From Actinomycetota bacterium (GTDB lineage: Bacteria > Actinomycetota > CADDZG01 > WHSQ01): DNA of 64,000 bases. Position 1 is the stretch's first letter. The number at the start of each line of letters is the position of its first letter. A program made the position numbers and the translations under genes. Below are positions 7,196-38,516 of the stretch, one piece after another. Location of the stretch: positions 95,140-159,139 of the forward strand of contig JAUJPD010000005.1 in assembly GCA_030447315.1 (NCBI GenBank), given 5' to 3'. The notes below the pieces were generated by a model. The model searched no databases, had not been told where the DNA came from, and worked only from the letters and a program-made list of their open reading frames with translations.

Positions 7196-7279
7196 GTCGG
7201 AGTGGCGGAATTGGCAGACGCGCTAGCTTGAGGGGCTAGTGGCCGCAAGGCTGTGGGGGTTCAAGTCCCCCCTCCGACA
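7196..7279 (+). tRNA. tRNA-Leu (anticodon GAG)
   Basis: Hand fold: acceptor GTCGGAG/CTCCGAC, anticodon stem CTAGC/GCTAG with loop TTGAGGG, long variable arm, T-arm GGGGG-TTCAAGT-CCCCC, discriminator A. CCA is not encoded. Confidence 0.9.
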
Positions 7280-7376
7280 CTGAAAAAGAGTAGCTGAAAC
7301 CGCAGGTAGAACGGCACGGACGTCCGTTCGTGAACGCTTCCAAACCCGACGTATACGTCGTATTTGGAGCCGACTT

Positions 7377-8019
7377 CTAACATTCTTCTAACGTCCGGCT
7401 CCGAAGACCAGCGAAGCCACCTCGACGTCGCCTCTTAGCCTGCAAGCCTTGGATCGAGTGTGTGTACAAATCCAACGTGATGCTGACGCTGCTGTGGCCC
7501 AGGATCTCGCTCACGACCTGGCACACGCCGGAGGCGGGGTGGCAGCCAGGGATACCAGTCCTCGAGGGCCAGTGGCGAAGGTGTGGCGCCGTGAATCCTG
7601 GAACCATGTCTCCTGGGAACCCTTGCTTGCCGTGACAGCCGCTGCAGAACGTCGTCGGGTGGATCAGCGACCCATCGATGGCCAACAGAACGGACCCCCG
7701 TCCGAGGCCGGACCCATCAGGAGCTTGTCTTCGGCCTGGGCCACCTTGTGAGCCTTGAGCGCCGCCACGGTTTCGGGTGCCAACGGAATAGAGCGCTTAC
7801 TGCGCGGTGTCTTCGGCTCGACCATAGTCGGAGTCACGCAGCGCTTTCGAGAACCAGTTCGTGTTCGACGGATCGACACGTCCACGGTGCTAGATCGAGA
7901 GACACATCGACCCAACGAAGCCCGAGAACCTCACCACGGCGCATTCCGGTCGTCGCGGCTAGTAGCCACTGGGGCGTAGCGAGACGGTCACCGGAAGCGA
8001 CCTCCAGGAAGCGCCGCAT
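7377..8019 (-). pseudogene. tyrosine recombinase/phage integrase, frameshifted and N-terminally truncated
   Basis: Three overlapping minus-strand ORFs in different frames carry consecutive integrase motifs: TGMRRGEVLGLRWVDV (catalytic Arg box), EPKTPRSKRSIPLAPETVAALKAHK, and LGHSSVSITLDLYTH (C-terminal Tyr box). Confidence 0.8.
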
Positions 8020-8260
8020 CTCATTCGCTGTTCATCTGGCAGCGGCAGCAGGCCTGACTGATGACGCCACAACGACCCTTACGCTGAGCGAGGAGCAGCG
8101 GTCAAAGGACGCAAGTCCTTCGGATCGAAGCGGCGGAGTGGCTAACGCCTACTCCCGGACGCCCTTGACGGGAGAAGCATCGGGCGCAGCGAGTGCCCAG
8201 TATCTCTGGGACAGCTGGGGAGCTGGGTGGAGCCGGTAGGTGAACTCGTGTCGAGGACGC

Positions 8261-8464
8261 ATGACCTTTCGTAGACCGTGGCCTGTGATGTGGCTGCCGA
8301 CGCGGACTGTGCGCTGGAGCTTGTGCAGCAAGTAGAGAGCCACGTCAGTACAAACATCCCAGCAAGAGGGGCCGGGTAACGGTGCTGGCAAGCCGGGCCA
8401 TGATGTGCCGCAAGGAACTCTCACAAGTATCCTGAGACAAGCGCAGCTGAAGGAGAAGCAATGA
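8261..8464 (+). pseudogene. hicA: HicA-family toxin, broken by at least two frame changes as sequenced
   Basis: 204-nt span from an ATG to an ATGA overlap with hicB. Motifs are split over frames: ..VESH, RQYKHPSKRGRVTV, AGKPGHDVPQGTLTSILRQAQL. Confidence 0.5.
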
Positions 8465-8669
8465 GCCAGTACCTCGTGGTGGTTGAGAAGGCTGGCGATA
8501 ATTTCGCCGCCTATTCACCCGACCTACCCGAATGCGCCGTGACCGCTGACACCAAGAGGAAGCGCTCAATCTGATGCGCCGAGCCATCGATCTTCACATT
8601 CGCGGCCTGCGCGAGGACGGGCTTCCTGTTCCGGAACCCTCGACATCAGCCGAGTGTCTCGCCGTATAG
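8461..8669 (+). pseudogene. hicB: HicB-family antitoxin with one frame change near 8555-8560
   Basis: MSQYLVVVEKAGDNFAAYSPDLPECAVTADTK continues in the next frame as EEALNLMRRAIDLHIRGLREDGLPVPEPSTSAE. Confidence 0.72.
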
Positions 8670-8680
8670 GGCCCAACCCA

Positions 8681-9268
8681 ATGGTTACTCTAGACGCGCC
8701 TAACTTGACGATCGTCATTGCGGCAGAACCCGATGAGGTGTTCCCGCATTTCTGCCGTCCGGAATTGATCCAGCGATGGAGTCTCGGAATCAAGTCCGTC
8801 CAGGTGATCCAGGGTGATGCGTGCGCTCCCGGGAGCGTTCTCGTGTCGAAAATGAGCTGGAGCTCAGGTGTACGGAAGGCCCACACAAGGGTGATCGAAA
8901 GTAATCCCCCTTGGAAGTTCGTGACTGAAGAGCAGATCGGTGGGGTCACCGCGATTCAGACGTCTGTTCTAGAGAAGGTCGCGGAGGGAACCAAGGTGGT
9001 CTGCACATTGCAAGTTGCGAAACGCGGTGGCATCTATGGATTCATGTTGCGATTGCAGCCCGATGTATTCACCAAACAACTTGGCGTCCTGCTACCTCGA
9101 TTGAAGAAGGCGGTCGAGGAGCCCGACAAGAGCCGGTCAACTCGTGGGTTTCGAGGCCATCTTTGGGAGAGCTTGAAGGCCTCTCCTCGCCTCTCCCTCA
9201 AAGGTTTCCTCGCGTGCTTTGTTGGGAGCTACCTCATCGTGGCCGTCATAAAGGTCCTCGTCTCTTAA
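8681..9268 (+). CDS. SRPBCC-superfamily protein with a C-terminal TM helix
   Basis: The internal ATG at 8681 follows hicB. START/polyketide-cyclase-like N-terminus (LTIVIAAEPDEVFPHFCRPELIQRWS). Hydrophobic tail FLACFVGSYLIVAVIKVLV. Confidence 0.55.
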   Translation: MVTLDAPNLTIVIAAEPDEVFPHFCRPELIQRWSLGIKSVQVIQGDACAPGSVLVSKMSWSSGVRKAHTRVIESNPPWKFVTEEQIGGVTAIQTSVLEKVAEGTKVVCTLQVAKRGGIYGFMLRLQPDVFTKQLGVLLPRLKKAVEEPDKSRSTRGFRGHLWESLKASPRLSLKGFLACFVGSYLIVAVIKVLVS

Positions 9269-9602
9269 AAAGGGACCACCGGGAACTGTGTGTCGCCTCA
9301 GGTGTTGGCTGAGTATTGAGGAATGGTCGAAGACTCCTCTTAGTGCGCAGCGGCGAAAGAACTTTCCGGCCATGCACTGACAAGGGCCGCATTGGGAAGC
9401 GACTCGCTTCGCGAACCTTAGGCGCAGATCTTGGGGCCGTATCCGGCTCAACGCGTTGCGGGAGAGTCGTCCAGGACCGCGAGACCGAGCGCGGCAACAA
9501 GATCGTCGTGATTTCCCGCTCGCATCGCGCCGGTGACTACGTTCACGTCGCGCGCCGACAGTAGTGTCCGCGAATGGCTGATCCCGCTGTGGCGAAAGAG
9601 GC

Positions 9603-9914
9603 ATGACCGCTACCGGTACCTCAACCCACTCTCGTTCGCTCGCCAAACAGCTGCTAGGCGCGATCTGGTTGGTTGCCACTTTCTTTGGGGGGTGCGCCCT
9701 CTTTCTGTGGGCCTGGCTGTGGAATCTGCCGTTGACTGGAGAAATACACCCGAACCTTCCCCCCTACACGGTGCTGGCGGGTGCTATAGCCGCCTCTGGT
9801 CCGGGGACGCTCTGGTTCTTTACTCGGAAGTCTTTGTGGCTCTTGGCGGCAGGCGTCTTTCTAGCGACGGGTGTGGCCCTCGCCATCATCATGGCTGTTG
9901 CGAGTTTGGACTGA
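9603..9914 (+). CDS. hypothetical small membrane protein (3 predicted TM segments)
   Basis: 103-aa ORF with three hydrophobic stretches. No family recognised. Confidence 0.35.
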   Translation: MTATGTSTHSRSLAKQLLGAIWLVATFFGGCALFLWAWLWNLPLTGEIHPNLPPYTVLAGAIAASGPGTLWFFTRKSLWLLAAGVFLATGVALAIIMAVASLD

Positions 9915-9985
9915 GGTGGGCCCAGCGGGCAGCTAGTCCTGCTCCATTTTGCCGTCCCTCAGTGCGAGGGTGGCGCGCAACGCGG

Positions 9986-10018
9986 GTGTGCTGAAGGTTC
10001 GACTCGCCCCTCCGACAC
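9986..10018 (+). repeat. att-like direct repeat R1 (resembles the tRNA-Leu 3' end)
   Basis: GTGTGCTGAAGGTTCGACTCGCCCCTCCGACAC. Its last 23 nt match tRNA positions 7258-7280 at 20/23. It is 30/33 identical to R2 at 34951-34983. Confidence 0.65.
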
Positions 10019-10338
10019 CCAGGACTTACCAGTACGTGGGGGTCCTTCGCTCGCCTGAGTCCCCTTCGAGTACAAGCGACTGGACGGCGGAGGGCTCGGT
10101 TACTGGTGGCCGCTGGTTCGAGTTGCAGGCGGCGACACTGGTGGATGCCCTTCCCGATGGGCGTCCTAGAAGCGGAAGGAGGGCGGGGACCGCGCGCCCA
10201 CTGAGTCTGGCTTAGGTTAGCTGGACGACTTTCGTGACGTCGACCAGGACCGGGGTTCCGACGAGGTCGTGTCTATCTCCAAGACTCGCCTTTCTGTTTG
10301 CATCCCCCAGGCTCAGCCCCTAAGATGCCGCCCGTCAG

Positions 10339-10479
10339 AGCGATGGTGCGAGGAAGCCGGTTAGATGCCGGCGCGGTCGCTTTCACTGTAGCCGGAGGGT
10401 CTCTCCACAATGCCACTGCCGCAGGGCGGGAAGGCGGAGTAGGACGATGCTCCGGGAGCCAGGACATTCGGCCATCGCT
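10339..10479 (+). promoter_or_regulatory. cobalamin (B12) riboswitch aptamer
   Basis: P1 pairing AGCGATGG (10339-10346) with CCATCGCT (10472-10479). Conserved core GGTGCGAGGAAGCCGGTTAGATGCCGGCGCGGTC, GCCACTG..GGGAAGGCGG, and a B12-box-like GAGCCAGGACATTCGGCC. AGGAGG plus ATG at 10518 follow. Confidence 0.8.
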
Positions 10480-10517
10480 ATACCGCCGAACGGGACGCGC
10501 AATCCCCAGGAGGTTTC

Positions 10518-10717
10518 ATGTCGAACGTTGCTGTTGCGCCAGTTCTCTCCGAAGCTGGCTACCCGCCCGCGATCTCCCTTCGCATCTTTGGCCTTGGACC
10601 GTCTTCGTAGCAGCGATCCTGCTCTTCGCTCTACATGATGGGCTCGTACCAGGGTTCAGCGACGCTGCACGAGTTTCTCCACGACGGTCGGCATCTGCTC
10701 GGCTTCCCTGTCACTGA
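10518..10717 (+). pseudogene. cbtB: cobalt transporter subunit CbtB, about three frame changes as sequenced
   Basis: N-terminus MSNVAVAPV.., TM segment WTVFVAAILLFAL (other frame), then YMMGSYQGSATLHEFLHDGRHLLGFP. The terminal PCH-stop appears only after a 1-nt shift at a CCC run. Confidence 0.7.
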
Positions 10718-10727
10718 CGGCCCAAAG

Positions 10728-11488
10728 ATGTTGAGGGGCTTGCTCGTCTGCGGGCTCGTCGCAGTGCGCCGGCCTGCTTGCAACTGGATTCGCTCGGATC
10801 GTGGGAGAACCCTCCGTCGACGCGGCGATCGCCTTCGAGGAAAGTCAGGTGGATCCGGCCGCCGCCGGCAGCATCCACGCATCAACATGCGGGGCCCTTT
10901 GGTCTCGCGGAAGACCCAGAGCACCGCGGGCTGCTCGGTGCCGCTCTCATCTACGGCCTCTCGTTAGGCGGGCTCTTCGCGTGCTCTTGCATTCGTCTAC
11001 GGGCGTGTGGGCAAGCTCAGTCCAGCCGCTACGGCACTTTGGCTGGCAGGCGCATCGTTCGTCGTCCTCTTCTCGTGCCGTTTCTAAAGTTCCCTGCGAA
11101 CCCACCGGCGGTGGGGAACCCGGACACGATCACCAAGCGAACGGTTCTGTACTTCACGATGATGGGCATCTCGATCCTCGGCGCAGTGCTTGCGGTGCGC
11201 GCTCGCAAGCTGCTTGCACACCATGGACCGTCACCGGCCCTGGCCGTAGGCCTCGCGCCCTACGGGGTGGTCGTTCTCGTGGCAGGGCTGGCCCTGCCCG
11301 GCATCCAGGAGGTGCCGAGGGACTTCCCGGCCGTGACCCTATGGGAGTTTCGGCAGGCGACTGTTGGCACTCAGCTCGTCCTCTGGACGGTGCTCGGCTC
11401 GGTCTTCGCGCTCGGATCAAGACGGGTGATGACTCCGCTTGAAGTGCCGAGCCAGGAGCTGGCGTCCCCACTTCGACCAGGAGACTGA
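10728..11488 (+). pseudogene. cbtA: cobalt transporter subunit CbtA, at least four frame changes as sequenced
   Basis: CbtA-like blocks lie in different frames: MLRGLLVCGLVA, GEPSVDAAIAFEE, LAFVYGRVGKLSPAATALWLAGASFVVL, LVPFLKFPANPPAVGNPDTITKRTVLYF, FPAVTLWEFRQATVGTQLVLW. Confidence 0.72.
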
Positions 11489-11558
11489 CATTGCCCGCCC
11501 ACCCGGGATCCGCCGCCCCGGCCCTCCTCCGATCGGTGGCCGCCCCGGGCGCGCAGCA

Positions 11559-12638
11559 GTGACGCTCACTGCCCCGGCGTGCTCGACATGCATGAGGCCG
11601 AGGATGGCTGGCTTGCGCGCATCCGCCTGCCGGGCGGAATGGTCTCGGCTGAGCAGCTCGCCGCGATCGCAGAGCTCGCCGGGAGGAAGTGGCATCGTTG
11701 AGCTCACCGCCAGGGCGAACCTGCAGGTGCGCGGGCTTCCGCCGGAGAGTGGTGCCGCACGCTTTGAGGCGCTCGAGGCGGTCGGACTGCTTCCTTCGAT
11801 GACACATGAGCGCATCCGCAATGTGCTCGCAAGTCCCCTGGCTGGACGCCATCCTCGCTCGCTCTGCACGACCGATCAGCTCGTGCACGAGCTCGATCGC
11901 GGGCTCTGCGCGGACTCTCAGCTCGCGCACCTCCCACAGCGCTTCCTCTTCGCCCTTGACGACGGCGGGGGCGCGCTCGCGCCGACCGCCGACGTTGCAC
12001 TTGCGGCGGCGGCGAAGACGGGTTCCGCCTGCTCCTGGGAGGCCTTCCTACGGATGCCGTTGTGCCCGGACGGCAGGCTGCAGAGCTTGCACTCTTGGCG
12101 GCGCGGGCTTTCCTTGCTGTCAATCACGCTGGCGGTTGGCGCGCCGCGGAGCTGCCTGATGGAGCGCGGTCGATTGCAGCGCGGCTCGGAGCCAGACTCG
12201 CCCTCACCGATGAGATGCCGGCGTCAACCGCTGTTCCGCCAGGAAGATGCGAGCAGCGCGACGGGCGCTTTGCGCTGACGGCTCTTCCGCCACTCAGGTC
12301 GTCTCGACCCCGAGGTTGTCAGCGTGATCGCGGCGCTCGCTCGAGCGTGCGCCGGCTCTATCCGCATCGCCGCGGACGAAGAGCCTCAGCTTCGTGGACC
12401 TCGAGCCCGCGGCCGTGGACCCCTGGCCAGGGCGCTGCAGGATCTCGGGCTCGTCACCGAGCCGGGTTCCGGCTGGGAAGGGCTGAGTGCCTGCGCCGGT
12501 CTCCGTGCCTGCGCCAAGGCTCGAATCGACGTGCAGGCGGCGGCTAACGTTCGCGCAGCTGTGCGCGGGGCCGGCGCTCATCGGGAGCACTGGTCCGCTT
12601 GTGAGCGCCGCTGTGGCGAGCCACGCGGTGTCGCTTGA
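11559..12638 (+). pseudogene. cobG: precorrin-3B synthase CobG (O2-dependent), at least five frame changes as sequenced
   Basis: Blocks in alternating frames: CPGVLDMHEAEDGWLARIRLPGGMVSAEQLAAIAELAG; GSGIVELTARANLQVRGLP..RNVLASPLAG..LPQRFLFALDDGGG; AAELALLAARAFL..WRAAEL; LSFVDLEPAAVD; LGLVTEPGSGWEGLSACAGLRACAKARIDV..HWSACERRCGEP. Confidence 0.75.
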
Positions 12639-12731
12639 GCGTGGCCGCCTCTGGCGATGCGGTGGTCGTCGGCCAGCAGATCGTGCTTGACGCGAAGCAC
12701 GCACTCGGCTTGTTCGCGACGGACGGGGAGC

Positions 12732-13358
12732 ATGAGCGCGTACCTTCGCGACGGGGCCGAGATCTATCGGCGCTCGTTCGCGACGATCCGTGCGGAAGCT
12801 GATCTCGATGGCTTCGATCCGTTGCTCGCTCGAGCGGCGGTTCGCATGATCCATGCCTGCGGCATGGTCGACCTGACCCGCGACATCGCGACTTCGCAAG
12901 GCTTTGCAGCCACGGCGGCGGCTGCGCTTGAGGCGGGCGCTCCGGTCCTCTGCGATACGGACATGGTCGCCGCTGGCGTCACGCGCTCGCGCCTCCCTGC
13001 AACGAACCAAGTGATCTGCACACTGTCCGACCCTCGCGTGTCAGCGCTCGCGCGCGAACTGGGCACGACGCGCTCGGCCGCTGCGCTTGAGCTCTGGCGC
13101 GAACAGCTCGATGGCGCCCTCGTCGTGATCGGGAATGCGCCGACGGCCCTCTTCCGTCTACTTGAGCTGATCGAGGAAGGCGCGGATCGACCGGCGGCTG
13201 TCATCGGCGTGCCTGTCGGATTCGTTGGTGCCCTCGAGTCCAAGCTAGCGCTGGCCGACCACCCCGCTGGCTTGGAGTACCTCGTCGTCCACGGCCGCCG
13301 CGGCGGGAGCCCGATCGCCGCGGCGGCCGTCAATGCACTTGCGTGCCCAGCAGAGTGA
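12732..13358 (+). CDS. cobH: precorrin-8X methylmutase
   Basis: The internal ATG at 12732 gives [46 protein letters not shown], typical of CobH/CbiC. Confidence 0.9.
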
Positions 13359-14893
13359 ACAGGAACGGACGCCAACCCGGGAAGCTCTTCGGCGTCGGCG
13401 TAGGCCCCGGCGATCCCGAGCTGCTGACGCTCAAGGCGCGCCGCGTCGTGGAGGCGGCACACGTCGTCGCCTACCCTTGCGCCCGTCACCGCCGAAGCGT
13501 TGCGCGCAGGATCGCTGCGCCCTACCTGCGCGAGGAGCAGCTCGAGATCGCGCTGAGCTTCCCTGTCACGACCGAGCAGACAGACCACCCGGAAGGCTAC
13601 GAGGGAGCACTGCGCGACTTCTACGACGAGAGCGCAGCGGAGCTCGCGGAACATCTCGAACAGGGCCGAGACGTCGCGGTGCTCTGCGAGGGCGACCCTT
13701 TCTTCTACGGGAGCTACATGTACTTGCACGAGCGGCTCGCCCACCACTACGAGGTCGAGGTCGTCCCCGGCGTCACCTCGTTCAGTGCCGCCGCTGCCGC
13801 GGCGGGAACGCCGCTCGTGAAGCGCGACGACGTCTTTACCGTTTTGCCTGGCACGCTCGGACCGGACGCCGTGACGGAGTGGCTGCGGTCAGCGGATGCA
13901 GCAGTCGTGCTCAAGCTCGGGCGCGCCTTCTCGGGAGTCTGCAGCGCCGCAGAGCAGGCGGGTGTGGCCGAGCGGGCCATCTACGTGGAGCGGGCCAGCT
14001 CGCCGGAGCAGCGGATCTCGGCTTTGCGAGAGGTGGAAGGTGACGTTCCCTACATGTCGCTCGTGCTCGTGCCGACCCTGAACGGCGCGCAGGCCAACGG
14101 CGACTCGGCCCAAGGCTGCCTCACCGTTGTCGGACTCGGCCCCGCAGGACGGGAATGGCTGACACCCGAGGCGCAGGCTGTGCTCGCGGAGGCGGATGAG
14201 CTCGTTGGCTACGGCCCCTACCTTGCCCGCGTGCCTGAGCGAAAGGGCCAAAGACGGCAGGCAAGCGACAACCGCAACGAGACCGAGCGGGCTCGTGTCG
14301 CGCTGGACTTGGCCACCAGGGGCAAGCGCGTGGCGGTGGTCTCCTCAGGCGATCCGGGCATCTTCGCCATGGCGGCCGCGGTGCTCGAGGTAGTGGATGA
14401 GGCGGGCGGCACGTACAGCCAGACTGCCGTTCGGGTTGTGCCGGGCCTCTCCGCGATGCAGGCAGCGGCCGCACGCGTAGGCGCCCCCCTGGGGCATGAC
14501 TTCTGCGTCCTCTCGCTCTCCGATCAACTCAAGCCGTGGGAGATCATCGAGCGCCGGCTCGAGGCGGCCGGGGCGGCCGATCTCGTGCTCGCGCTCTACA
14601 ACCCTGCATCGCGCACGAGGCGGGAGCAACTGGAGCGGGCGCGCAGTGTGCTGCTTCGCCACAGAAGCGAAGGGACTCCAGTAGTCGTCGCGCGGGACGT
14701 TGGCGGCCCCGAAGAGGACGTCGTGGTCTCGACGCTCGCCGGCTTCGACGCAGAGAGCGTGGACATGCGAACGCTGCTCGTGATCGGTTCCTCGACGACG
14801 CGCGTGATCGAAGGCCCGGGAGGGACGCGGCAGGTCTACACACCGCGCCGGTACCCGGCCGGTCTACGCGCCTCGCGCCGTTACCCGGCCTGA
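13343..14893 (+). CDS. cobIJ: fused precorrin-2 C20-methyltransferase / precorrin-3B C17-methyltransferase (CobI-CobJ)
   Basis: Two tetrapyrrole-methylase domains: [18 protein letters not shown].. and [28 protein letters not shown]. An alternative GTG at 13355 overlaps the cobH stop (GTGA). Confidence 0.88.
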
Positions 14894-14897
14894 ACCG

Positions 14898-15665
14898 ATG
14901 AGACGTGTGCTGCTCATCGGCATCGGCGCCGGCGATCCCGAGCATCTGACCGTGCAAGCGATCAAGGCGCTCAACGCGGTCGACGTCTTCTTCGTCGTCG
15001 ACAAGGGAGAGACCAAGCAGGACCTCATCCGCCTGCGGAAGGAGATCTGCGATCGCTACGTCGAGGGCCGCTCCTACCGCATGGTGGAGGTACGCGACCC
15101 GGAACGTAGCCGCTCTGCGGCCGCCTACCGCTCCGCTGTTGAGGACTGGCGACGACGCAGGGCAGACGTCTACGAGACGCTCATCCAGGAAGAGCTCGAC
15201 GAGCACGGCTGCGGCGTGCTTCTCGTCTGGGGCGACCCTTCGCTTTACGACAGCACGCTCGCGATCGTCGACGAGATCCTAGCTAGGGGAAACGTCGAGT
15301 TCGAGGTCGAGGTTGTTCCCGGGATCAGCAGCATCCAGGCGCTTGCCGCCAAGCACAGGATCACGCTCACCCAGGTCGGCCGGCCCATGCAGATCACGAC
15401 CGGCCGCCTTCTGGCGACGGGCTTCCCTGCGGAAGCCGACGACGTCGTCGTCATGCTCGACGCGGAGTGCTCGTTCAAGCAACTCGTCGGCGACGAGCGC
15501 GAGATCGACATCTACTGGGGGGCGTACGTCGGCACCGAGGACGAGCTGCTCGTCGCGGGTGAACTGAGTGCGGTCACTGACCACATCGAGCGGATTCGGT
15601 CCGCGGCAAGAGCCAGCAAGGGCTGGATCATGGACTCCTACTTGTTGCGGAGACGCACCCTTTGA
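14898..15665 (+). CDS. cobF: precorrin-6A synthase (deacetylating)
   Basis: MRRVLLIGIGAGDPEHLTVQAIKALNAVDVFFVVDKG..VWGDPSLYDS matches CobF as I recall it from Pseudomonas denitrificans. CobF is a marker of the aerobic route. Confidence 0.82.
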   Translation: MRRVLLIGIGAGDPEHLTVQAIKALNAVDVFFVVDKGETKQDLIRLRKEICDRYVEGRSYRMVEVRDPERSRSAAAYRSAVEDWRRRRADVYETLIQEELDEHGCGVLLVWGDPSLYDSTLAIVDEILARGNVEFEVEVVPGISSIQALAAKHRITLTQVGRPMQITTGRLLATGFPAEADDVVVMLDAECSFKQLVGDEREIDIYWGAYVGTEDELLVAGELSAVTDHIERIRSAARASKGWIMDSYLLRRRTL

Positions 15666-27849: not shown

Positions 27850-29057
27850 GCGCGCCACTGACCGTCGTCGGAATCGGAACCGAGGGCTGGGACAGTCTCA
27901 GTCCCGCGGCGCAGGCAGCCATTCGCGAAGCGACCCTGATCATCGGGTCGGAGCGCCAGTTGGCACTGCTGCCGGAGACGGCCGCGGTGCGACGACCGTG
28001 GCCTTCGCCGATCGACGCCCTGGTAGAGGAGCTCGTCTCCGGCGCTGCCGGGCCCGCCTGCATCCTGGCGAGCGGCGACCCCATGCTGCACGGGATCGGC
28101 GCGACGCTCGCTCGCAGAGTGGCCCGAGAGCGGCTGACTGTGCACCCTCACCTCTCTGCCTTCTCGCTCGCTTGTGCGCGACTGGGCTGGGCTGCTGCGG
28201 ACACTGAGCTCGTGAGCGCGGTCTCGAAGCCGGCTCATGTCGTCGCCCGCTTGCTCCAGCCGGGCCGAACGATGGTGGTTTACGTCACGGGTCCGGCCGG
28301 GGCGAGCGAGGTGGCCGAGATCCTGCACAGCCGCGGCTTCGGTCCCAGTCGCTTCGTCGTCCTCGAGCAGCTCGGCGGCCCGGAGGAGCAGGTGATCGAG
28401 AGCACCGCCGAGGAGTGGGGCACACGATCGGCGCATCCGCTCCACGCAGTCGCTATCGAATGTCGCGCCGCAAGCGGGGCGGCTCTGCTTCCTTGCAGCC
28501 CCGGCTTACCCGACAGTGCCTACGAAACCGACGGCCAACTGACGAAGCAGGAGGTGCGAGCGATCACGATCGCGGCGCTGGCGCCGCTTCCGCGCCAGCT
28601 CCTCTGGGACGTTGGGGCAGGCAGCGGATCGATCGCGATCGAATGGCTTCGCGCCGAGGCAACAGCGCGTGCGGTGGCCGTCGAGGCGCAGCCCGAACGG
28701 GCGGCACGCGTGGCCAGGAACGCCTCGACGCTCGGGGTGCCGCAGCTCGAGGTGCGCTGCGGCGAGGCGCCGGAAGCGCTCGAAGGGCTGGAGCGGCCGG
28801 ATGCCGTCTTCATCGGCGGCGGGCTGGGAGCGGGCGACCTGGTCGCTCACTGCTGGCAGGAGCTCAAGCCGGGAGGCCGCCTTGTGGCCAACGCGGTGAC
28901 GCTCGAGGGGGAGCAGGAGATCGAGGCCGCCCGCGCGACCTATGGCGGCCGGCTCGTTCGCATCGACATCAGCCGCGCAGCGCCTCTTGGCCGATACCAA
29001 GCCTGGCGCACGCAGCTCCCTGTCGTCCAGTGGGCGGCCTCGAAAGAGCCGTCGTGA
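27846..29057 (+). CDS. cobL: precorrin-6Y C5,15-methyltransferase (decarboxylating)
   Basis: GTGA overlap with cobB. LTVVGIGTEGW..ILASGDPMLHGIG, then a SAM-MTase half (LWDVGAGSGSIAIEW). Confidence 0.88.
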   Translation: MSAPLTVVGIGTEGWDSLSPAAQAAIREATLIIGSERQLALLPETAAVRRPWPSPIDALVEELVSGAAGPACILASGDPMLHGIGATLARRVARERLTVHPHLSAFSLACARLGWAAADTELVSAVSKPAHVVARLLQPGRTMVVYVTGPAGASEVAEILHSRGFGPSRFVVLEQLGGPEEQVIESTAEEWGTRSAHPLHAVAIECRAASGAALLPCSPGLPDSAYETDGQLTKQEVRAITIAALAPLPRQLLWDVGAGSGSIAIEWLRAEATARAVAVEAQPERAARVARNASTLGVPQLEVRCGEAPEALEGLERPDAVFIGGGLGAGDLVAHCWQELKPGGRLVANAVTLEGEQEIEAARATYGGRLVRIDISRAAPLGRYQAWRTQLPVVQWAASKEPS

Positions 29058-29800
29058 CCGTCCACTTCATCGGCTCGGGGCCCGGCGCGCCGGACCTGCT
29101 CACGCTCCGGGCACAGCGGCTGATCGCCGAGAGCCCCGTCTGCGTCTATGCAGGCGCGCTCGTTCCCCCCGAGGTGCTCGCCCACGCCCCCGCCGACGCG
29201 CGGCTGATCGACACGCAGCAGCTGAACCTCGACGAGATCGTCGCCGAGCTTCGCGCTGCCTACGAGCGCGGCGAGGACGTGGCCCGGCTTCAGTCCGGAG
29301 ACATCTCGATCTACAGCGCCGCCGCCGAGCAGATGCGCCGCCTGGACGAGCTCGGCATACCTTGGGATGTCACGCCCGGTGTACCGGCCTTCGCCGCCGC
29401 CGCGGCTTCGTTGCGCCAAGAGCTGACCCTGCCCGGCATCGCGCAGACCGTGATCCTGACCCGTCACAGCGCGCGCTCGACCGTGCTGCCGCCGGGGGAG
29501 GAACTCGCGTCGCTCGCGGCCCATCGAACGACGCTCGTCTTGCATCTGGCAGTGCAGGCGATCGACGAGATCGTCGCTGTGCTCGAGCCGGCCTACGGCT
29601 CCGACTGCCCGGCCGCCGTTGTCGCCCGGGCAAGCTGGCCCGACGAGCTCATCATCCGCGGGACGCTCGCGACGATCGCCGCGTCCACGCGCGAGGCCGA
29701 GATCCGCCGCACCGCGTTGATCCTGGTGGGGAAGGCACTCGCAGCACCGGAGTTCTGCGACAGCCACCTCTACTCCAAGGAGCGCGTCCGAACCCCATGA
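29054..29800 (+). CDS. cobM: precorrin-4 C11-methyltransferase
   Basis: GTGA overlap with cobL. VHFIGSGPGAPDLLTLRA..RLQSGDISIYSA..TPGVPAFAAAAA. Confidence 0.9.
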   Translation: MTVHFIGSGPGAPDLLTLRAQRLIAESPVCVYAGALVPPEVLAHAPADARLIDTQQLNLDEIVAELRAAYERGEDVARLQSGDISIYSAAAEQMRRLDELGIPWDVTPGVPAFAAAAASLRQELTLPGIAQTVILTRHSARSTVLPPGEELASLAAHRTTLVLHLAVQAIDEIVAVLEPAYGSDCPAAVVARASWPDELIIRGTLATIAASTREAEIRRTALILVGKALAAPEFCDSHLYSKERVRTP

Positions 29801-31653
29801 CGAGCACGGAGCAGTTCGAGCGACCTGCGCTGCCGCCTGGCTTCGACGACTCGCGCGCACGCGAGCGCAGCCTCGATCTCGCCGGCTGGCGCTTCGACGA
29901 GGCGGAGCGCCTCGGCGTCTGGCGGGCGATCGCCGAGCGGCGGGACATCCGCCGCTTCCGCACCGACCCGCTGCCAGACCAGCTCCTGCGACGGTTGCTC
30001 GAGGCGGCACATCAGGCCCCCTCGGTCGGACTCATGCAGCCCTGGCGCTTCGTCGTCGTTCGCAGCGAGGAGACGAAGGCTGAGATGCAGGGCATCGCAG
30101 CGCGGGAGCGGCTCGTGCAGGCAGACCACTTCGCCGAACGCGCCCGCCACTACCTCGACTTGAAGATCGAGGGCATCCGCGAGGCGCCACTCAGCCTCTG
30201 TGTCTGCTGCGACCGCGGCTCGGACGAGGACGAAGTGCTGGGTCGCCATACGATCAAGGACACCGATCTCTACAGCACCTGCCTCGCGATCCAGAACTTC
30301 TGGTTGGCGGCGCGGGCCGAGGGGGTCGGCGTCGGTTGGGTCTCCTTCTACAAGCCCCAAGAAGTGCGCGCCTTGCTCGGCCTGCCCGACCGTGTCGTGC
30401 CGGTCGCCTGGCTCTGCGTCGGCTATCCCGACGAGCGGCCGAGTCGGCCTGGCCTCGAGGCGGCCGGCTGGGCCCGGCGCCAACCACTGGAGGAAGTCGT
30501 TTTCTCGGAGCGCTGGGGCGAGCCGCTCTCCTCCGAACCTCCAGCTAGCCAGATGGCGTCGAAGATCGTCCGACCGGTCGAGCTCCCCGCTTGGTGGAAG
30601 CAGCTCGCGCAAGCGGTGCGGCCAGGTGAGGGAGCAGCCGCGGTTCGTATCCGGGACGCCTCCGACGAGCTCGTCAAGCCACCGGGCAGTCTGGGGGGGC
30701 TCGAGTCGCTCGTCGAGCGCTGGGCCATGGTCACCGGAGAAGCGCCGCCCCGTACGCCCCGAGCCGGGATCGCCGTGTTCGCGGGCGACCACGGCGTCTG
30801 CGAACGGGGGGTGAGCCTTTATCCCCAGAGCGTCAGCGCCCAGGTTGCTGCCGCTTCCGCGCGCTGCGAGACGGCGATCGGAGTCCTTGCCGACGCGCTC
30901 GACGCGGAACTCGTGGTCGTCGACGTCGGCCTGAAAGGCCCCCGGAACCCGACGCTGCTCGACCACCGCTGCGCCGAGGGAAGCGCAGACATCACGGCCG
31001 GCCCCGCGCTTACGGAAGAGCAGCTCCGCGCGGCGATCGAGGCGGGTCACTCGGTCGCCTCGGAACTCGCCACCCGCTGCGACGTTCTCGTCGTGGGTGA
31101 GATCGGAATCGGGAACACCACCGTCGCAAGCGCCCTCCTTGCCTCGCTCACCGGCCTCTCCGCGGAAAGCGTCTGCGGCCGAGGCACCGGCCTCGACGCT
31201 CAAGGCCTAGCGCGAAAGTGCGCCACTATCGCGGCAGCCCTCGAGGCGAACAGGCCCCGGCGAGGCGACTCACTCGACTGCTTGCGGCGCGTCGGCGGTC
31301 TCGAGTTCGCGGCCCTCGTGGGAGCGCTCATCGGGGCGGCGGCTGCCAGCCGGCCGGTGGTGCTCGACGGCTTCGGAACCGGGGTAGCGGGTCTGGTCGC
31401 AGTTCGCCTGCAGCCTGCCCTTCGCGACTACCTGATCGCCGGCCACCGCTCGTCTGAGCCCGGCCATGGGTTCGTCCTCCGCGAGCTAGGCCTCGAGCCG
31501 CTGCTCGATCTGCGCCTCCGCCTCGGTGAGGCGAGCGGCGCTGCACTTGCGATTCCGCTCGTCGGCCTCGCGGCGCGGCTCCATTCGGACATGCGTCGCT
31601 TCGACGAGGCAGGCGTCGACCGCGCCCGCTCCGGCGGAACTGCGAGCGGCTGA
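29797..31653 (+). CDS. fused 5,6-dimethylbenzimidazole synthase (BluB) / nicotinate-nucleotide-DMB phosphoribosyltransferase (CobT)
   Basis: ATGA overlap with cobM. The N-terminal nitroreductase-like half (RRDIRRFRTDPLP..APSVGLMQPWRFVVV) looks like BluB. The C-terminal half (KPPGSLGGLE..FAGDHGV..GEIGIGNTT..LGEASGAALA) looks like CobT. Confidence 0.85.
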   Translation: MTSTEQFERPALPPGFDDSRARERSLDLAGWRFDEAERLGVWRAIAERRDIRRFRTDPLPDQLLRRLLEAAHQAPSVGLMQPWRFVVVRSEETKAEMQGIAARERLVQADHFAERARHYLDLKIEGIREAPLSLCVCCDRGSDEDEVLGRHTIKDTDLYSTCLAIQNFWLAARAEGVGVGWVSFYKPQEVRALLGLPDRVVPVAWLCVGYPDERPSRPGLEAAGWARRQPLEEVVFSERWGEPLSSEPPASQMASKIVRPVELPAWWKQLAQAVRPGEGAAAVRIRDASDELVKPPGSLGGLESLVERWAMVTGEAPPRTPRAGIAVFAGDHGVCERGVSLYPQSVSAQVAAASARCETAIGVLADALDAELVVVDVGLKGPRNPTLLDHRCAEGSADITAGPALTEEQLRAAIEAGHSVASELATRCDVLVVGEIGIGNTTVASALLASLTGLSAESVCGRGTGLDAQGLARKCATIAAALEANRPRRGDSLDCLRRVGGLEFAALVGALIGAAAASRPVVLDGFGTGVAGLVAVRLQPALRDYLIAGHRSSEPGHGFVLRELGLEPLLDLRLRLGEASGAALAIPLVGLAARLHSDMRRFDEAGVDRARSGGTASG

Positions 31654-32588
31654 TGCGCGGCGGTGTTGCGGGCGCGATCGCGGCCGGCTGGATTAGCGAC
31701 AGGGCGCTCGGCGATCCTGCTCGGCTGCATCCGGTTGCCGGATTTGGTCAGGCCGCCGCCGCGCTCGAGCGACGCACATGGCGACCGACCAGGGCGGCGG
31801 GGGTTGCCCACGTCGCAGCGCTCGTGGGCGCTGTTGGAATCATGACGACCGTCGCAGACCGGCTGCTCGCAAGGTGGCCGTTTCGTCGCACCGTATTTCG
31901 TGCGGGGCTGGTCTGGGCGACGCTGGGGGGACACTCGCTTGAGCGCGCGGCTCTTGCGCTGGCACGCGAGCTCGAGGCCGGCAGGCTCGATGGGGCGCGA
32001 GCGCTTGCGCCGACCCTCGTCGGTCGCGACCCGTCGATCCTTGACGCGCCGGAGCTCAGCCGGGCCGCCGTCGAGTCTGTGGCCGAGAACACGAGCGACG
32101 CAGTCCTTGCGCCGCTCCTGTGGACTGTGCTGCTCGGCCTGCCTGGAGCGACGGTGTACCGAGCGATCAACACGCTCGACGCCATGTTGGGCCACCGTGA
32201 CGAGCGCTACCGGAACTTCGGCTGGGCCGCGGCCCGGCTCGATGATCTGGTCAACTGGCCTGCCGCCCGAGCGAGTGCTCTGCTCGCCGTTGCTTGGGCG
32301 CCCGCACTCGGCGGCAGTCGCCAGGCCGCGTGGCGGTCGGCCTGGCGGGACGGGGCAGCCCACCCGAGCCCGAATGCAGGCCGCGTCGAGGGAGCCTTCG
32401 CGGGCGCGCTGGGGGTCCGGCTCGGCGGCCTCAACCGCTATTCCTCAGGACCCGAATGGCGACCGCTGCTGGGAGTCGGAGCGACCCCCGACGTGAGCGA
32501 TATCGCTCGAGCCGTCGATCTCGCTCGACTAGTCAGCGCCTCCGCAGGCATCGGCTGCGTGCTCCTCGCCTGGGGGCTGCGCAGGTGA
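31653..32588 (+). CDS. cbiB: adenosylcobinamide-phosphate synthase
   Basis: HPVAGFGQAAAALE..NTSDAVLAPLLW..SPNAGRVEGAFAGALGVRLGG, CbiB/CobD type membrane protein. Confidence 0.9.
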   Translation: MRGGVAGAIAAGWISDRALGDPARLHPVAGFGQAAAALERRTWRPTRAAGVAHVAALVGAVGIMTTVADRLLARWPFRRTVFRAGLVWATLGGHSLERAALALARELEAGRLDGARALAPTLVGRDPSILDAPELSRAAVESVAENTSDAVLAPLLWTVLLGLPGATVYRAINTLDAMLGHRDERYRNFGWAAARLDDLVNWPAARASALLAVAWAPALGGSRQAAWRSAWRDGAAHPSPNAGRVEGAFAGALGVRLGGLNRYSSGPEWRPLLGVGATPDVSDIARAVDLARLVSASAGIGCVLLAWGLRR

Positions 32589-33589
32589 GCTTGCGCACCC
32601 ATGGCGACACGATGGCGTGCCCGGGCACGCTCGACTTCGCCGTCAATGTCTGGCCGGAGCGTCCACCGATGCTCGAAGCCGCGTTCGTGCAGGCGCTCTC
32701 GCAGAGTCGGGCATACCCAAACGAGTCCCCGGCGCGGGAATCGATCGCAGCCGCACACGGCCGGAGTGTCGATGAGGTGCTGCTGCTAAACGGCGCCTGC
32801 GAGGCGTTTTGGTTGCTCGCCCACGCCTTTCGCCCGAAGCTCGCCGCCTGCATCCACCCGAGCTTCACCGAGCCCGAGGCCGCGTTGCGCGCGGCTGGCG
32901 CCGAGGTCGTCCAGGTCCCCAGAGATCCGGAGCGTTGGAGCTTCGACCCGAGGCATGTTTCCGAGGACGCGGAGATGGTCGTGCTCGGCAACCCCAACAA
33001 TCCGACTGGGAGCCTCGATCGACCGGACCACATCGCATCACTTGCGCGGCAGCGGCGGTTGCTCGTCGTCGACGAGTCCTTTATGGACTTCGTGGTGGAT
33101 GAGGGCGGGACGCTTGCCCGGCGCAGTGAGCTGCCAGGCCTCGTCGTCGTGCGGAGTCTGACGAAGCTCTGGTCGCTCCCCGGCATCCGCGCTGGGTACC
33201 TGCTCGCCCCGCCGGAGGTTGTCGAGGTTTTAGCGGGAAGCCGACAACCCTGGAGCGTGAACGCGCTCGCCTGCGCGGCGCTCGCGGCGTGCGCCGACGA
33301 TGCAGTGACGCCGCGCCGCGTCTCCTTGCAGGTCGCGGAGGCGCGGGCGGAGCTGCTCGAAGGTTTGCGGTGCCTGCCCCAGATACGCGTTTGGCCTTCC
33401 GAAGCCAATTTCATTCTGCTGCAAGCCAGAGATGGTCGGATCCTGTGCGAAGACCTTCGCCGGCTCGGGGTAGCCGTTCGTCCGGCGGCTTCGTTCCCGG
33501 GCCTGGACCACGATTATCTCCGCGTCGCCGTGCGTCCCCGCGAGGACAACCTCGTCCTACTCGAAGCGTTGAGCGCGCTCTGCTCCTGA
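32585..33589 (+). CDS. cobD: threonine-phosphate decarboxylase (class I/II aminotransferase fold)
   Basis: GTGA overlap with cbiB. DFAVNVWPERPP..YPNESP..VVLGNPNNPTG..VVDESFMDF..VRSLTKLWSLPGIRAGY. Confidence 0.8.
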   Translation: MSLRTHGDTMACPGTLDFAVNVWPERPPMLEAAFVQALSQSRAYPNESPARESIAAAHGRSVDEVLLLNGACEAFWLLAHAFRPKLAACIHPSFTEPEAALRAAGAEVVQVPRDPERWSFDPRHVSEDAEMVVLGNPNNPTGSLDRPDHIASLARQRRLLVVDESFMDFVVDEGGTLARRSELPGLVVVRSLTKLWSLPGIRAGYLLAPPEVVEVLAGSRQPWSVNALACAALAACADDAVTPRRVSLQVAEARAELLEGLRCLPQIRVWPSEANFILLQARDGRILCEDLRRLGVAVRPAASFPGLDHDYLRVAVRPREDNLVLLEALSALCS

Positions 33590-34128
33590 TGGCGCTCGTT
33601 CTCCTCCTCGGCGGCGCCCGCAGCGGAAAGTCCGAGCTAGCGGTGCGTCTTGCCAAAGGCCAGAGCGCGCCGGTGGTCTTCGTAGCGACCGCAGAAGCCC
33701 GTGACGACGACATGGCCGAGCGCATCGAGCGCCACCGCGCAGAGCGCCCTGCTGCGTGGCAGACATGCGAGGAGCAGCTTCACCTGATGCAGACGCTTGA
33801 AGGCATCCCCGCAGAGAGCTGCGTCATCCTCGACTGTTTAACGCTTTGGGCTGCGAACGCACTCGAGCGTGTGGGCGCTGACGACGCTGAAGAGCAAGCA
33901 CGGAACGCTGCTCGTGCCGCGGCGCGGCGAAGCGGCCTGACGGTCGTCGTCTCGAACGAGGTCGGGCTCGGCATCGTGCCCGCCAACGGTCTGGCCCGCG
34001 CCTACCGCGACCTCCTTGGCCGCGTGAACACGATCTGGGCCGAAGCAGCCGAGCGGGTCTTTCTCCTCGTTGCCGGGCGAGCGCTTGAGCTCAAGCCCTC
34101 TGCGTCTCTGCTGGAGGAGCAGCCGTAA
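33589..34128 (+). CDS. cobU: adenosylcobinamide kinase / adenosylcobinamide-phosphate guanylyltransferase
   Basis: LLLGGARSGKSELA..FVATAEARDDDMAERIERHRAERP..VVSNEVGLGIVP. Confidence 0.9.
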   Translation: MALVLLLGGARSGKSELAVRLAKGQSAPVVFVATAEARDDDMAERIERHRAERPAAWQTCEEQLHLMQTLEGIPAESCVILDCLTLWAANALERVGADDAEEQARNAARAAARRSGLTVVVSNEVGLGIVPANGLARAYRDLLGRVNTIWAEAAERVFLLVAGRALELKPSASLLEEQP

Positions 34129-34151
34129 ACGGCGCCGCCGAGCTCCGTGCG

Positions 34152-34882
34152 GTGCCGGCCGCACTGGCCTTCCTGACCCGTATCCCTGTCGGGCGCTGGT
34201 TCGACTTCGACGGTGAGGACGTCGCCCGTGCCGGGCTCGTGTTCCCTCTGGTCGGTGCCGCGATCGGAGCGATGATCGGCGCGACAGCGGTCCTTCTCGA
34301 CCGGACGCTCCCGCCATTCCTCGCGGTCGCTTTAGCGCTTGCACTGCAGGTCTCGCTGACCGGAGCGCTGCATGTCGGCGCGCTTGCCGACACCGCCGAC
34401 GCAATGGGCGGGCGTTCGCGCAAGCACGCACTAGAGATCATGCGCGACCCGCGATCGGATCCTACGGCGCGGTCGCGCTCGCACTCAGCCTGCTCATCAA
34501 GACGACTGCTCTAGTCGCGCTGCTCGAACACGACCACGTCATAGCAGTAATGGTGGCTTCTGGAGCGCTCTCCCGTGCCACGCCCGTTGTGTTGGCCGCG
34601 TGGCTTCCCTATGCGTGTCGGTTCAGGCACGGAAGCTCGCTCACCCGCGGAGGGCATGGCCGCGCAGCACTGGCTGCGGGACTGGCTGTCGCCATAGCGT
34701 TTCTCGTAAGCGCAGCGGATGCGGCGATTCTTGCGGCGTGTGCGGGGAGCTGTTTAGTGCTGCTCGGCTTAGGCTTCCGCCGTTGGCTCGGCGGAGTAAC
34801 CGGCGACACGCTGGGAGCAGCGATAGAGGTAGTCGAGCTCGCTGTGCTTGTTGGCGCGGTAGCTCTGTTCGATGCCGGATAG
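34152..34882 (+). pseudogene. cobS: adenosylcobinamide-GDP ribazoletransferase (cobalamin synthase), one frame change near 34450-34455
   Basis: LAFLTRIPV..TGALHVGALADTADAMGG..ALEIMRDPR continues after a 1-nt shift as IGSYGAVALALSLLIKT..MVASGALSRA..WLGGVTGDTLGA. Confidence 0.85.
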
Positions 34883-34950
34883 GTGTCGTCACTCGGAACT
34901 TCGGCGAGTAAACCCGTGACTATGTGGTGGGGAGTCATTCTCTCTACTCC

Positions 34951-34983
34951 GTGTGCTGAAGGTCGCACTCGCCCCTCCGACAC
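34951..34983 (+). repeat. att-like direct repeat R2
   Basis: GTGTGCTGAAGGTCGCACTCGCCCCTCCGACAC. 30/33 identical to R1, in the same orientation as the tRNA-Leu 3' end. Confidence 0.65.
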
Positions 34984-38343: not shown

Positions 38344-38516
38344 CAGCGGGCTCGAGGAGAGCGCGTAGCCGCTGGCGCTAGATCGCCGGGGTGGTTCGGT
38401 TGTGGCGCCACCACTGCGAGGTCCGGCGTCTCGTTGCGCGCAAGTCGCGGATTCGTCACGTTTAACGCCGGCCCCGGCGGCGGCCGCCGGTAAACCCCTC
38501 CCCACCCGGCACGCAA

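Follow-up and report, generated by a model that had tools for sequence, protein, structure and literature searches.

How does a pathway for making vitamin B12 come to lie behind a tRNA gene, framed on both sides by sequence that resembles the end of this very tRNA? The question is raised by 64,000 nucleotides of DNA from an Actinomycetota bacterium (GenBank assembly GCA_030447315.1, contig JAUJPD010000005.1, positions 95,140 to 159,139 of the forward strand). This whole stretch is called the window in the following, and all coordinates refer to it unless another contig is named. It contains an intact tRNA-Leu(GAG) gene, three same-strand occurrences of the 3' end of this gene including the gene's own, and, enclosed by the second and the third, a cobalamin riboswitch with a cluster of cobalamin biosynthesis (cob) genes. 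The explanation that we favor with moderate confidence is serial integration at the tRNA-Leu 3' end by two kinds of elements, which would have left a decaying tandem array with a horizontally acquired cob module. A preliminary description of the same DNA had already proposed serial integrations at one tRNA. The tandem array of that proposal is upheld here, while the history appears more composite: one islet is assigned to a tyrosine integrase and the two distal junctions to a serine recombinase.

Repeats of the tRNA end and their anatomy

What exactly has been repeated? The tRNA-Leu(GAG) gene (7196-7280, plus strand) is recognized by ARAGORN and by Rfam model RF00005 with 53.1 bits, and it is the sole tRNA gene of the window. 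Its last 23 nucleotides, GGTTCAAGTCCCCCCTCCGACAC (copy 1, 7258-7280), form the left attachment site (attL) of the outermost islet and recur on the same strand at 9996-10018 (copy 2, 20/23 identical) and 34961-34983 (copy 3, 18/23). The final 12 nucleotides, CCCCTCCGACAC, are invariant across the three copies. A degenerate version of the 23-mer, searched with up to three mismatches, has exactly three matches in the window compared to 0.00 expected from 100 shuffles, and the recurrence reported in the preliminary description is confirmed along with the identity of 30/33 between the two distal copies (9986-10018 and 34951-34983). ARAGORN, run at a relaxed threshold, detected no pseudo-tRNA near the two distal copies. 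The layout is that of a tRNA-anchored island: the tRNA gene is intact, foreign DNA starts directly 3' of it at position 7281, and the segments are bounded by same-strand repeats of the tRNA 3' end in three copies.

Copies 2 and 3 share more with each other than with the tRNA gene. Both carry a 13-nt left arm, GTGTGCTGAAGGT, which is missing from tRNA-Leu, and both continue rightwards with related sequence, as the weaker downstream similarity noted earlier had indicated. Read on the minus strand, these right arms encode the end of a recombinase protein. The resulting sites span about 50-70 nt. Their left arm, GTGTGCTGAAGGT, is not tRNA sequence, their core is tRNA-like and closes with CCCCTCCGACAC, and a minus-strand recombinase 3' end follows. 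At the attachment-like (att-like) junction c2 (9986-10056, plus strand, profile E 3e-15) the core reaches to 10018 and is followed by about 40 nt of a vestigial recombinase 3' end; at c3 (34951-35018, plus strand, profile E 1e-14) it reaches to 34983 and runs into the recombinase 3' end. The minus strand reads ELTPRVLTDVSEGRVRPSAH at copy 3 and, in a frameshifted form, ..YW*VLGVSEGRVEPSAH at copy 2. The peptides VSEGRVEPSAH and VSEGRVRPSAH and the stretch ..IRALVAQLGEIAIGTREADAGLKSELQMGLRLSYDP.. ahead of the 35-kb copy, all previously described, can be read as stated. The VSEG.. peptide corresponds to the acceptor and T-arm of the tRNA read in reverse complement. By this anatomy copies 2 and 3 are not plain duplicates of the tRNA end but sites of a serine-recombinase element family, and we infer that they were or still are substrates of a large serine recombinase (LSR).

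Other interpretations of the sites were considered and discarded. A symmetric attP was rejected, as the dyad symmetry of the att-like sites is not above that of shuffled controls, and an attC-like or terminator-like hairpin was rejected on folding z-scores of -0.44 to 0.27. With no dyad symmetry, folding z-scores around zero and no IntI in the window, the locus is not an integron-type cassette array; its likeness to one is limited to the layout of repeated sites that tightly bracket cargo.

Two recombinase classes at one tRNA

Which enzymes could have acted here? Reading into c3 on the minus strand is an LSR C-terminal remnant of about 90 codons (34942-35223; tblastn match 35223-34948). When the 91-residue tail was compared with 1.84 billion proteins by phmmer, it matched protein P0109 with a library-wide E of 1.9e-6 at 44-46% identity (pairwise 44% over 82 residues, E 2e-16). 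P0109 in turn matches the C-terminal 165 residues of a 560-residue open reading frame (ORF) of Streptomyces sp. BHT-5-2 with 37% identity (E 3e-16). This ORF (L031 2816-4498, NZ_CP081497.1) carries the Resolvase (PF00239), Recombinase (PF07508) and Zn_ribbon (PF13408) domains and, like actinobacterial LSRs in general, the long C-terminal region typical of them. Over its last 37 nt the ORF runs into the 3' end of a tRNA-Leu(GAG) gene convergent with it, in the same geometry as in the window, and its full-length product ends in ...ECPRGDLNPHAR (L031 2816-4547 region). In a three-way alignment the tails from the window, P0109 and the Streptomyces LSR are colinear. This chain of homologues supports the assignment of the tail to an LSR family whose gene reads into tRNA-Leu(GAG), and the earlier description of the sequence next to copy 3 as the tail of a recombinase family is borne out, transitively through P0109. 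The other phmmer match of the tail, P0108, is a 4582-residue cadherin/Ig repeat protein and was treated as spurious. No match to the tail was found in Pfam, NCBIfam, a word-indexed protein search or tblastn on plasmids.

The family stands apart from characterized LSRs. Its Streptomyces member shares only about 23% identity with the phage integrases of INPHARED and has no relative in IMG/VR and, by sequence, none in PDB. To our knowledge it is unusual for an LSR to target and overlap a tRNA 3' end, and characterized LSRs mostly target protein-coding genes.

A different enzyme abuts the tRNA gene itself. Between 7377 and 8019 on the minus strand, reading toward the tRNA, lies a tyrosine integrase pseudogene in at least three frames (ORF pieces 7377-7685, 7664-7915 and 7834-8019) that scores 28.7 bits to PF00589 with a cutoff of 27.1, which confirms an earlier reading of a frameshifted integrase at this place. 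A continuous PF00589 catalytic domain with R..HxxR..Y is not present, the gene being split over its frames. Since a tyrosine integrase abuts the tRNA while copies 2 and 3 belong to a serine-recombinase family with an extra left arm, the three copies are not the products of one system but of two unrelated recombinase classes.

All recombinase genes adjoining the att sites are pseudogenes: the frameshifted tyrosine integrase, the 90-codon LSR tail at c3 and about 15 vestigial codons at c2. Of the recombinase remnants proposed earlier for the right side of each copy, those at the tRNA and at c3 can be read, and copy 2 keeps only these decayed codons. Neither Pfam searches for PF00239, PF07508 and PF13408 nor tblastn with the full Streptomyces LSR detected these domains in the window, and the LSR is present as a remnant only.

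The same site in other genomes

If these junctions are the product of a specific process, one would look for them elsewhere. In L015, a related metagenome-assembled genome (MAG), the syntenic tRNA-Leu with a right arm of the same kind is followed by a 1044-residue gene, a full site, a 539-residue gene and another site. In site terms this is tRNA+P', then P-O-P', then P-O-B', with single cargo genes in between. The B' flank of the last L015 site equals the sequence seen immediately 3' of the tRNA in L002/L004 and behind the direct repeat of L013; the right arm of c3 resembles that of site L15a in L015. An LSR-type attP that imitates the end of the tRNA and extends over the region where the recombinase gene stops would regenerate the tRNA upon integration and leave P-O-P' hybrid junctions; the order attL, hybrid attP-like junction and attR in L015 corresponds to the pattern predicted by serial site-specific integration.

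An exact-pattern scan of JGI metagenome contigs (241 million records) returned a single contig, L032. Its c2-type site (31/33 identical, plus 14/19 downstream) lies 77 nt upstream of an 826-residue gene, and its right arm ends at about the same position as in the window. No recombinase gene was found in the site-flanked modules of L015 and L032. The site is seen in two other metagenomic genomes flanking cargo that has no recombinase gene, and across the three genomes the four modules leave hardly any backbone between a site and its cargo. When the window and about 0.5 Mb of the relatives' loci were searched with a profile built from five sites, no further copy appeared, only weak matches to true tRNA-Leu ends; within these loci, copies of the site occur solely downstream of tRNA-Leu in L015.

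These searches bear on the idea that the 33-mer is a dispersed repeat of the repetitive extragenic palindromic (REP) or miniature inverted-repeat transposable element (MITE) type, or a structured RNA or DNA element, whose likeness to the tRNA is coincidental. Such an element would fit a sequence that is intergenic, sits just after gene ends in the window and in L015, and is seen in three organisms with sharply defined edges. It would hardly be confined to two copies in 64 kb, to none in the relatives' loci except downstream of tRNA-Leu in L015, and to one contig in the whole metagenome scan. It would also have to do without the hairpin and the dyad symmetry that were sought above, and leave unexplained why the core matches the tRNA-Leu acceptor stem of the clade and why the right arm lines up with the C-terminus of a recombinase. 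We regard this idea as highly improbable.

The scarcity of backbone allows for a bolder view, namely that the conserved 50-70-nt sites still work in recombination, as parts of a cassette-like array that would be anchored at tRNA-Leu in an uncultured actinobacterial clade and whose recombinase-less modules would be stacked, and shuffled, by an LSR acting in trans and encoded elsewhere. The four backbone-poor modules in three genomes and the shared right-arm end of the c2-type site in the window and L032 speak in its favor, and we offer it as a tentative and unlikely reading.

The tyrosine-integrase part of the array has a counterpart as well. In L013 a 3.7-kb tyrosine-integrase islet lies between tRNA-Leu and a 22/24 direct repeat, and the integrase fragment next to the tRNA is related to the tyrosine integrase of the window (73% over 26 residues).

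A separate observation concerns an IS481-like (rve) element located directly 3' of tRNA-Leu in L002 (11494-12770; same contig as L004) with a 13-nt duplication of the tRNA end. The B' sequence in L002 is the inverted repeat of this element, and sequence resembling its terminal repeat also follows the last direct repeat in L013 (10405-10441) and L015 (16761-16797). The IS481-like element may also prefer the tRNA-Leu end.

An integration hotspot without cob genes in relatives

Was the cob cluster always at this locus? The upstream core of the window consists of pgk, tpiA, a PF10143-type phosphoglycerate mutase gene, secG and two SBP_bac_5 genes, after which the tRNA-Leu gene follows. Fourteen contigs, which come from MAGs and metagenomes related at the family level only, keep the order pgk-tpi-gpmI-secG-SBP-SBP-tRNA-Leu. 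In all relatives for which the region was recovered, tRNA-Leu stands directly after the second SBP gene (SBP2), and its anticodon is GAG except in L015, where the anticodon of the syntenic gene (11329-11412) is called AAG.

Downstream of the tRNA the contigs diverge. Either a response regulator-GGDEF gene (RR-GGDEF) and DUF3151 or other, variable genes follow, over 0.1 to >9 kb. RR-GGDEF comes next after tRNA-Leu in L036 and L002/L004 and is itself followed by DUF3151, with an insertion sequence in between in L002, and in L018 DUF3151 begins 440 nt past the tRNA. Up to 6 kb of variable genes separate tRNA-Leu from conserved genes in the remaining relatives, apart from L038/L039, where the variable stretch exceeds 9 kb and extends to the end of the DNA examined. 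Genes in this latter stretch encode a DAO oxidase and Big_3_5, beta-propeller and Amphi-Trp proteins, and neither direct repeats nor an integrase are detectable in it. In the window, 36.3 kb lie between tRNA-Leu and RR-GGDEF, and 7281-43579 is extra relative to the closest relatives. Synteny resumes with RR-GGDEF (43580-44569, minus strand) and DUF3151 (plus strand), which together occupy 43580-45120 by Pfam and synteny and mark the right limit of the variable region. The variable content among relatives identifies the locus as an integration hotspot, and, given the different genes in L038/L039, it serves more elements than those described here. No cob genes are present at tRNA-Leu in any of the 14 syntenic contigs.

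The composition of the cob DNA deviates from that of its surroundings. Its GC content is 68-74%. The flanks at 7-10 kb and 35-44 kb have 58-63%, and the core has about 65-68% ahead of tRNA-Leu and 61-70% beyond 43.6 kb. Relative to the core, the cob DNA is 3-5 points higher and islet 1, between the first and second copies, 4-8 points lower. Tetranucleotide profiles correlate with the core at r = 0.83-0.85 for cob, 0.70 for islet 1 and 0.91-0.93 for 35-43.6 kb, whereas core compared with core gives 0.96. The GC contrast put forward in the preliminary description is hence real; measured against the true core it is modest, and the GC of third codon positions (GC3) in cob genes equals that of the core.

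Could the cob cluster be ancestral at the locus and have been lost or moved in the sampled relatives, with copies 2 and 3 as relics of transient elements on either side? The equal GC3 would fit this case, and so would the distance of the relatives available, the closest non-self ones being at 57-63% identity for SBP2 and 76-78% for pgk. An ancestral cluster sits poorly with the 14 contigs that have no cob genes here and with a composition that differs from the core. Moreover, the cob genes have their closest relatives in other contexts, at identities far above those of any relative of a core protein, as detailed below. The geometry adds to this: integration at a tRNA 3' end pushes older DNA rightwards, and the DNA between the tRNA and a P-O-P' junction must consequently be younger than the element on its right. 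We consider an ancestral cluster very unlikely.

A chimeric and partly broken cob cluster

The cob DNA fills segment 2 (10019-34950) nearly completely. The cobalamin riboswitch (10327-10490, plus strand; RF00174, 68.7 bits) starts 309 nt after copy 2, slightly less than the 320 nt given previously, and the end of the cobS frame (34882) lies 69 nt before copy 3 as described, which supports the statement that the cluster is placed exactly between two att-like junctions. All genes are on the plus strand. An intact cbtB, a frameshifted cbtA and a cobG with at least three frameshifts occupy 10518-12632, identified by tblastn of L034 proteins in alternating frames and by a CbtA Pfam match. They are followed at 12657-18524 by cobH, cobI/J, cobM, cobK, a His_Phos gene and cobQ (Pfam and tblastn). 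Within 18509-34882 Pfam identifies cobN, a methylase, a ChlI/D-type chelatase, cobO, a metalloenzyme-cobB fusion, cobL, another methylase and bluB-cobT, and thereafter cobD, an aminotransferase, cobU and cobS.

The close relatives of this cluster are found outside the locus. For CobN, five homologs on other contigs have at least 90% amino acid identity, one of them labelled Thermoleophilaceae, and more than 100 have 77-83%, labelled Thermoleophilaceae, Solirubrobacteraceae or Conexibacter; the identity to P0110 is 93%. SBP2, a neighboring core protein, has no non-self relative above 63%, far below the values for CobN. In L033 and L034 the same cob cluster has differing left flanks, with PALP, methyltransferase and TetR genes in one and BioY and carbonic anhydrase genes in the other. 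Blastn homology of the window to both begins at 10321, by the riboswitch, and no tRNA or att motif was found at the left flank of their cob clusters.

The similarity to other cob clusters is not uniform. Between 12.8 and 18.5 kb the window is about 92% identical at the nucleotide level to L045/L046 and about 80% to L034; between 18.8 and 31.8 kb it is about 83% identical to L045/L046 and about 92% to L034, and the latter level is held up to 32.3 kb. Thus cobH to cobQ form an L045-like block and the genes from cobN to cobS belong to an L034-like one, with a breakpoint near the cobQ/cobN boundary at about 18.3-18.8 kb. Between L033 and L034 the identity is uniform, at about 90.6%. The cluster is a recombinant, a chimera of two cob lineages, and the reciprocal identity to L045 on the left and L034 on the right makes horizontal exchange of cob DNA directly visible.

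The clusters also differ in their riboswitches. In L033 and L034 a second cobalamin riboswitch lies between cobK and the His_Phos gene (L034 7633-7825). It is missing in L045/L046 and in the window, where a gap of about 240 nt falls at 16370-16440 and Rfam finds no remnant of it, and the downstream cob genes of the window are consequently left without their own riboswitch.

Is the pathway still functional? The preliminary description had called it complete, which is not borne out. Relative to the L034 proteins, cbtA has at least one frameshift, cobG at least three, and cobS is split over two frames (34152-34514 and 34550-34882); in addition, a 1-nt insertion at 26396 fuses the metalloenzyme gene to cobB. 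Decay is located at 10765-12632 (cbtA and cobG) and 34514-34550 (cobS). Indels whose length is not a multiple of three number 14 in cbtA and 19 in cobG, compared with one over the 13 kb from cobN to cobD. It is this clustering that led us to reject sequencing error or assembly noise behind the frameshifts and to take cbtA and cobG for real pseudogenes. What is left is an aerobic, cobN-type cluster in which the riboswitch and most enzymes are present but the reading frames of cobG, cbtA and cobS are broken.

How did the cob cluster enter the array?

Acquisition of the whole cob module at the tRNA-Leu locus is the most economical reading, and we infer that the cob genes were carried in by site-specific integration. 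The att array could nevertheless be real and the cob genes not be the cargo of an integrase: they could have entered between existing junctions, or replaced the interior of an LSR element, through illegitimate or homologous recombination after DNA uptake. Several of the above results would suit such an entry. Homology to other cob clusters begins at the riboswitch, 300 nt inside c2, and no left att is found elsewhere; homologous exchange is demonstrable for the cluster; backbone genes are absent from the module; and the same cluster sits in two further contexts (L033 and L034) with no tRNA nearby. On the other hand, two independent end-joins would be needed, at most 309 nt and at most 69 nt from the att junctions, with everything else removed. 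The tight att-cargo-att layout is moreover seen in L015 and L032 around unrelated cargo, which points to a recurrent, site-defined process. Entry by illegitimate or homologous recombination seems rather unlikely, but it is the main alternative.

Under serial site-specific integration, the order of events in the array would be as follows. The oldest event would be the integration of an element with a tRNA-Leu-specific LSR, of which the tail at 34942-35223 and some junk DNA survive. The DNA adjoining the tail (35172-36486, minus strand) is decayed and gene-poor, with about 60% GC and, in a six-frame reading, a receiver-domain-like remnant at 35172-35534; it has no Pfam match and no homologue in the relatives' loci compared, and is probably the rest of this oldest element. 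Next, a module made up of the riboswitch, cbtBA and the cob genes, with little else, would have been placed to the left of the older element by integration or by mobilization in trans, so that in c3 the tRNA-like core would be joined on one side by the cob module's right arm and on the other by the left arm from the older element. One or more further elements of the LSR type would then have integrated and created c2, and a tyrosine-integrase element with hicAB would have followed into the regenerated tRNA. Finally, every recombinase function would have been lost through deletions and frameshifts. The cob module itself would have been acquired horizontally; it has since swapped its right two thirds by homologous recombination with another cob lineage and is now in decay at cbtA, cobG and cobS.

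A number of results weigh against this scenario. Neither a fourth copy nor a terminal, rightmost attR was found in the window by fuzzy searches, an nhmmer profile or a search for the B' flank of L013, L015 and L002, and the window holds no intact recombinase, be it a serine or a tyrosine enzyme. Compared directly, the window tail and the Streptomyces LSR show no significant similarity, leaving a link that is transitive via P0109, and within 49 kb of the Streptomyces LSR there is no direct repeat of the tRNA end. The minimal backbone of the cob module (309 nt to its left, 69 nt to its right) is not predicted by a simple decayed big element. The comparison of cob contexts with other genomes covers the left flank, and the right limit of the transferred DNA is a tentative one. 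Core proteins of the nearest relatives of the host are 57-86% identical to its own, and loss of cob from their locus is possible; besides the unchanged GC3, part of the compositional signal may come from the amino acid make-up of cob enzymes. Lastly, there is no sign that any of the elements excises, forms a circle or leaves an empty site.

Other features of the variable region

The rest of islet 1 (segment 1, 7281-9985) is decayed or small throughout. In a six-frame reading, remnants of a hicA/hicB toxin-antitoxin pair are found at 8240-8666 on the plus strand (HicA_toxin E 0.004, HicB_lk_antitox E 1e-5); the hicAB pair named earlier is thus readable, with both scores under the Pfam gathering thresholds. 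An SRPBCC-fold ORF (8654-9268, plus strand; PF10604, E 7.5e-8) and a small membrane ORF (9603-9914, plus strand; from the ORF list) complete the islet.

To the right of the decayed DNA next to c3 follows module 3 (36487-43583), in which Pfam identifies a hybrid histidine kinase, a carbonic anhydrase remnant, an ORF, an SRPBCC ORF and an ABC-2 transporter. It is missing from the closest relatives, yet its composition is native-like according to the tetranucleotide correlation given above, and L005 has a homologue of its histidine kinase just after the tRNA-Leu. The carbonic anhydrase remnant (38568-39056, minus strand) is about 69% identical over 192 nt to the intact gene upstream of the L034 cob cluster (L034 911-1402), in opposite orientation, which may be a coincidence or the trace of a common former neighborhood. 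A 71-nt intergenic direct repeat with 83% identity (39150-39220 and 40956-41026) stands upstream of two gene groups of the module and has no Rfam match.

Farther right, the paralogous genes at 52728-54209 and 56031-57425, about 3.25 kb apart, account for the repeat families D1, D8 and D20. Because they come after the proteasome ATPase in relatives, the two are probably dop and pafA, the pair of the Pup-ligase family.

Relation to known systems

Islands of this type are already known, and it is the cargo, a partly broken 25-kb cob cluster, that is unusual. Accretion of this kind has been described for cis-mobilizable elements (CIMEs) and for ICESt1 and ICESt3, where att-flanked segments that have no integrase or transfer genes reportedly lie in tandem at one attB and undergo accretion followed by decay. 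CIMEs are said to be defined for the integrative and conjugative elements (ICEs) of Streptococcus that use tyrosine integrases, with mobilization in cis shown experimentally. The segments of the window are likewise att-flanked, have no integrase and stand in tandem with other integrated elements; in contrast, their enzyme would be a serine recombinase, and they give no sign of mobility.

The closest analogue is the ssrA-specific genomic islands (ssrA-GIs) of Dehalococcoides (McMurdie et al. 2011, PMC3146451). They too lie in tandem, and repeats of the ssrA 3' end delimit them. Upstream of each repeat is a 15-bp motif that does not align with ssrA, and a serine recombinase of about 540 residues is encoded on the reverse strand adjoining attL (PMC3146451). 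Islands that have no integration module were read by the authors as cis-mobilizable elements joined by accretion, with metabolic cargo (PMC3146451). The islands of the window resemble them in their tandem arrangement after one structured-RNA gene, in the 3'-end repeats and in the extra upstream motif, which is 13 nt long here. They differ in their target, tRNA-Leu(GAG) instead of tmRNA, and in their host, an Actinomycetota instead of a Chloroflexota bacterium. Only the C-terminal tail of the recombinase is left, from a gene that overlaps the att core; a tyrosine-integrase islet shares the same tRNA; and the cargo is a 25-kb cob cluster. As the six-gene integration module with DsiB and DsiA is not present either, the window is to be seen as an analogue and not as a member of this group.

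Mobile cobalamin genes also have precedents. The cob operon of Salmonella is said to be an example of a horizontally mobile cobalamin cluster. On plasmid pSZ77 of Geobacter lovleyi a B12 biosynthesis cluster is found on a mobile platform (PMC3403914), comparable to the multigene cluster of the window on, or brought in via, such a platform. Unlike pSZ77, the pathway of the window is of the aerobic cobN type and chromosomal, belongs to a tRNA-anchored array, and is chimeric and partly pseudogenized.

What the locus may tell us

Should the sites indeed be those of a cassette-like array, it would constitute a serine-recombinase counterpart of the integron or of CIME accretion, whose modules would range from single genes, as in L015 and L032, up to a whole 25-kb B12 pathway. 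The LSR family that overlaps the 3' end of tRNA-Leu(GAG), together with its short att sites, may offer integration tools for actinobacteria, if active. For metabolic inference from MAGs the cluster is a warning, as it would be scored as that of a 'B12 producer' although cobG, cbtA and cobS are broken. Taken as a whole, the locus presents a complete-looking B12 pathway that has been parked in a tRNA hotspot, has recombined with a second cob lineage and is starting to decay, and it bears on the turnover between B12 prototrophy and auxotrophy in uncultured soil Actinomycetota.

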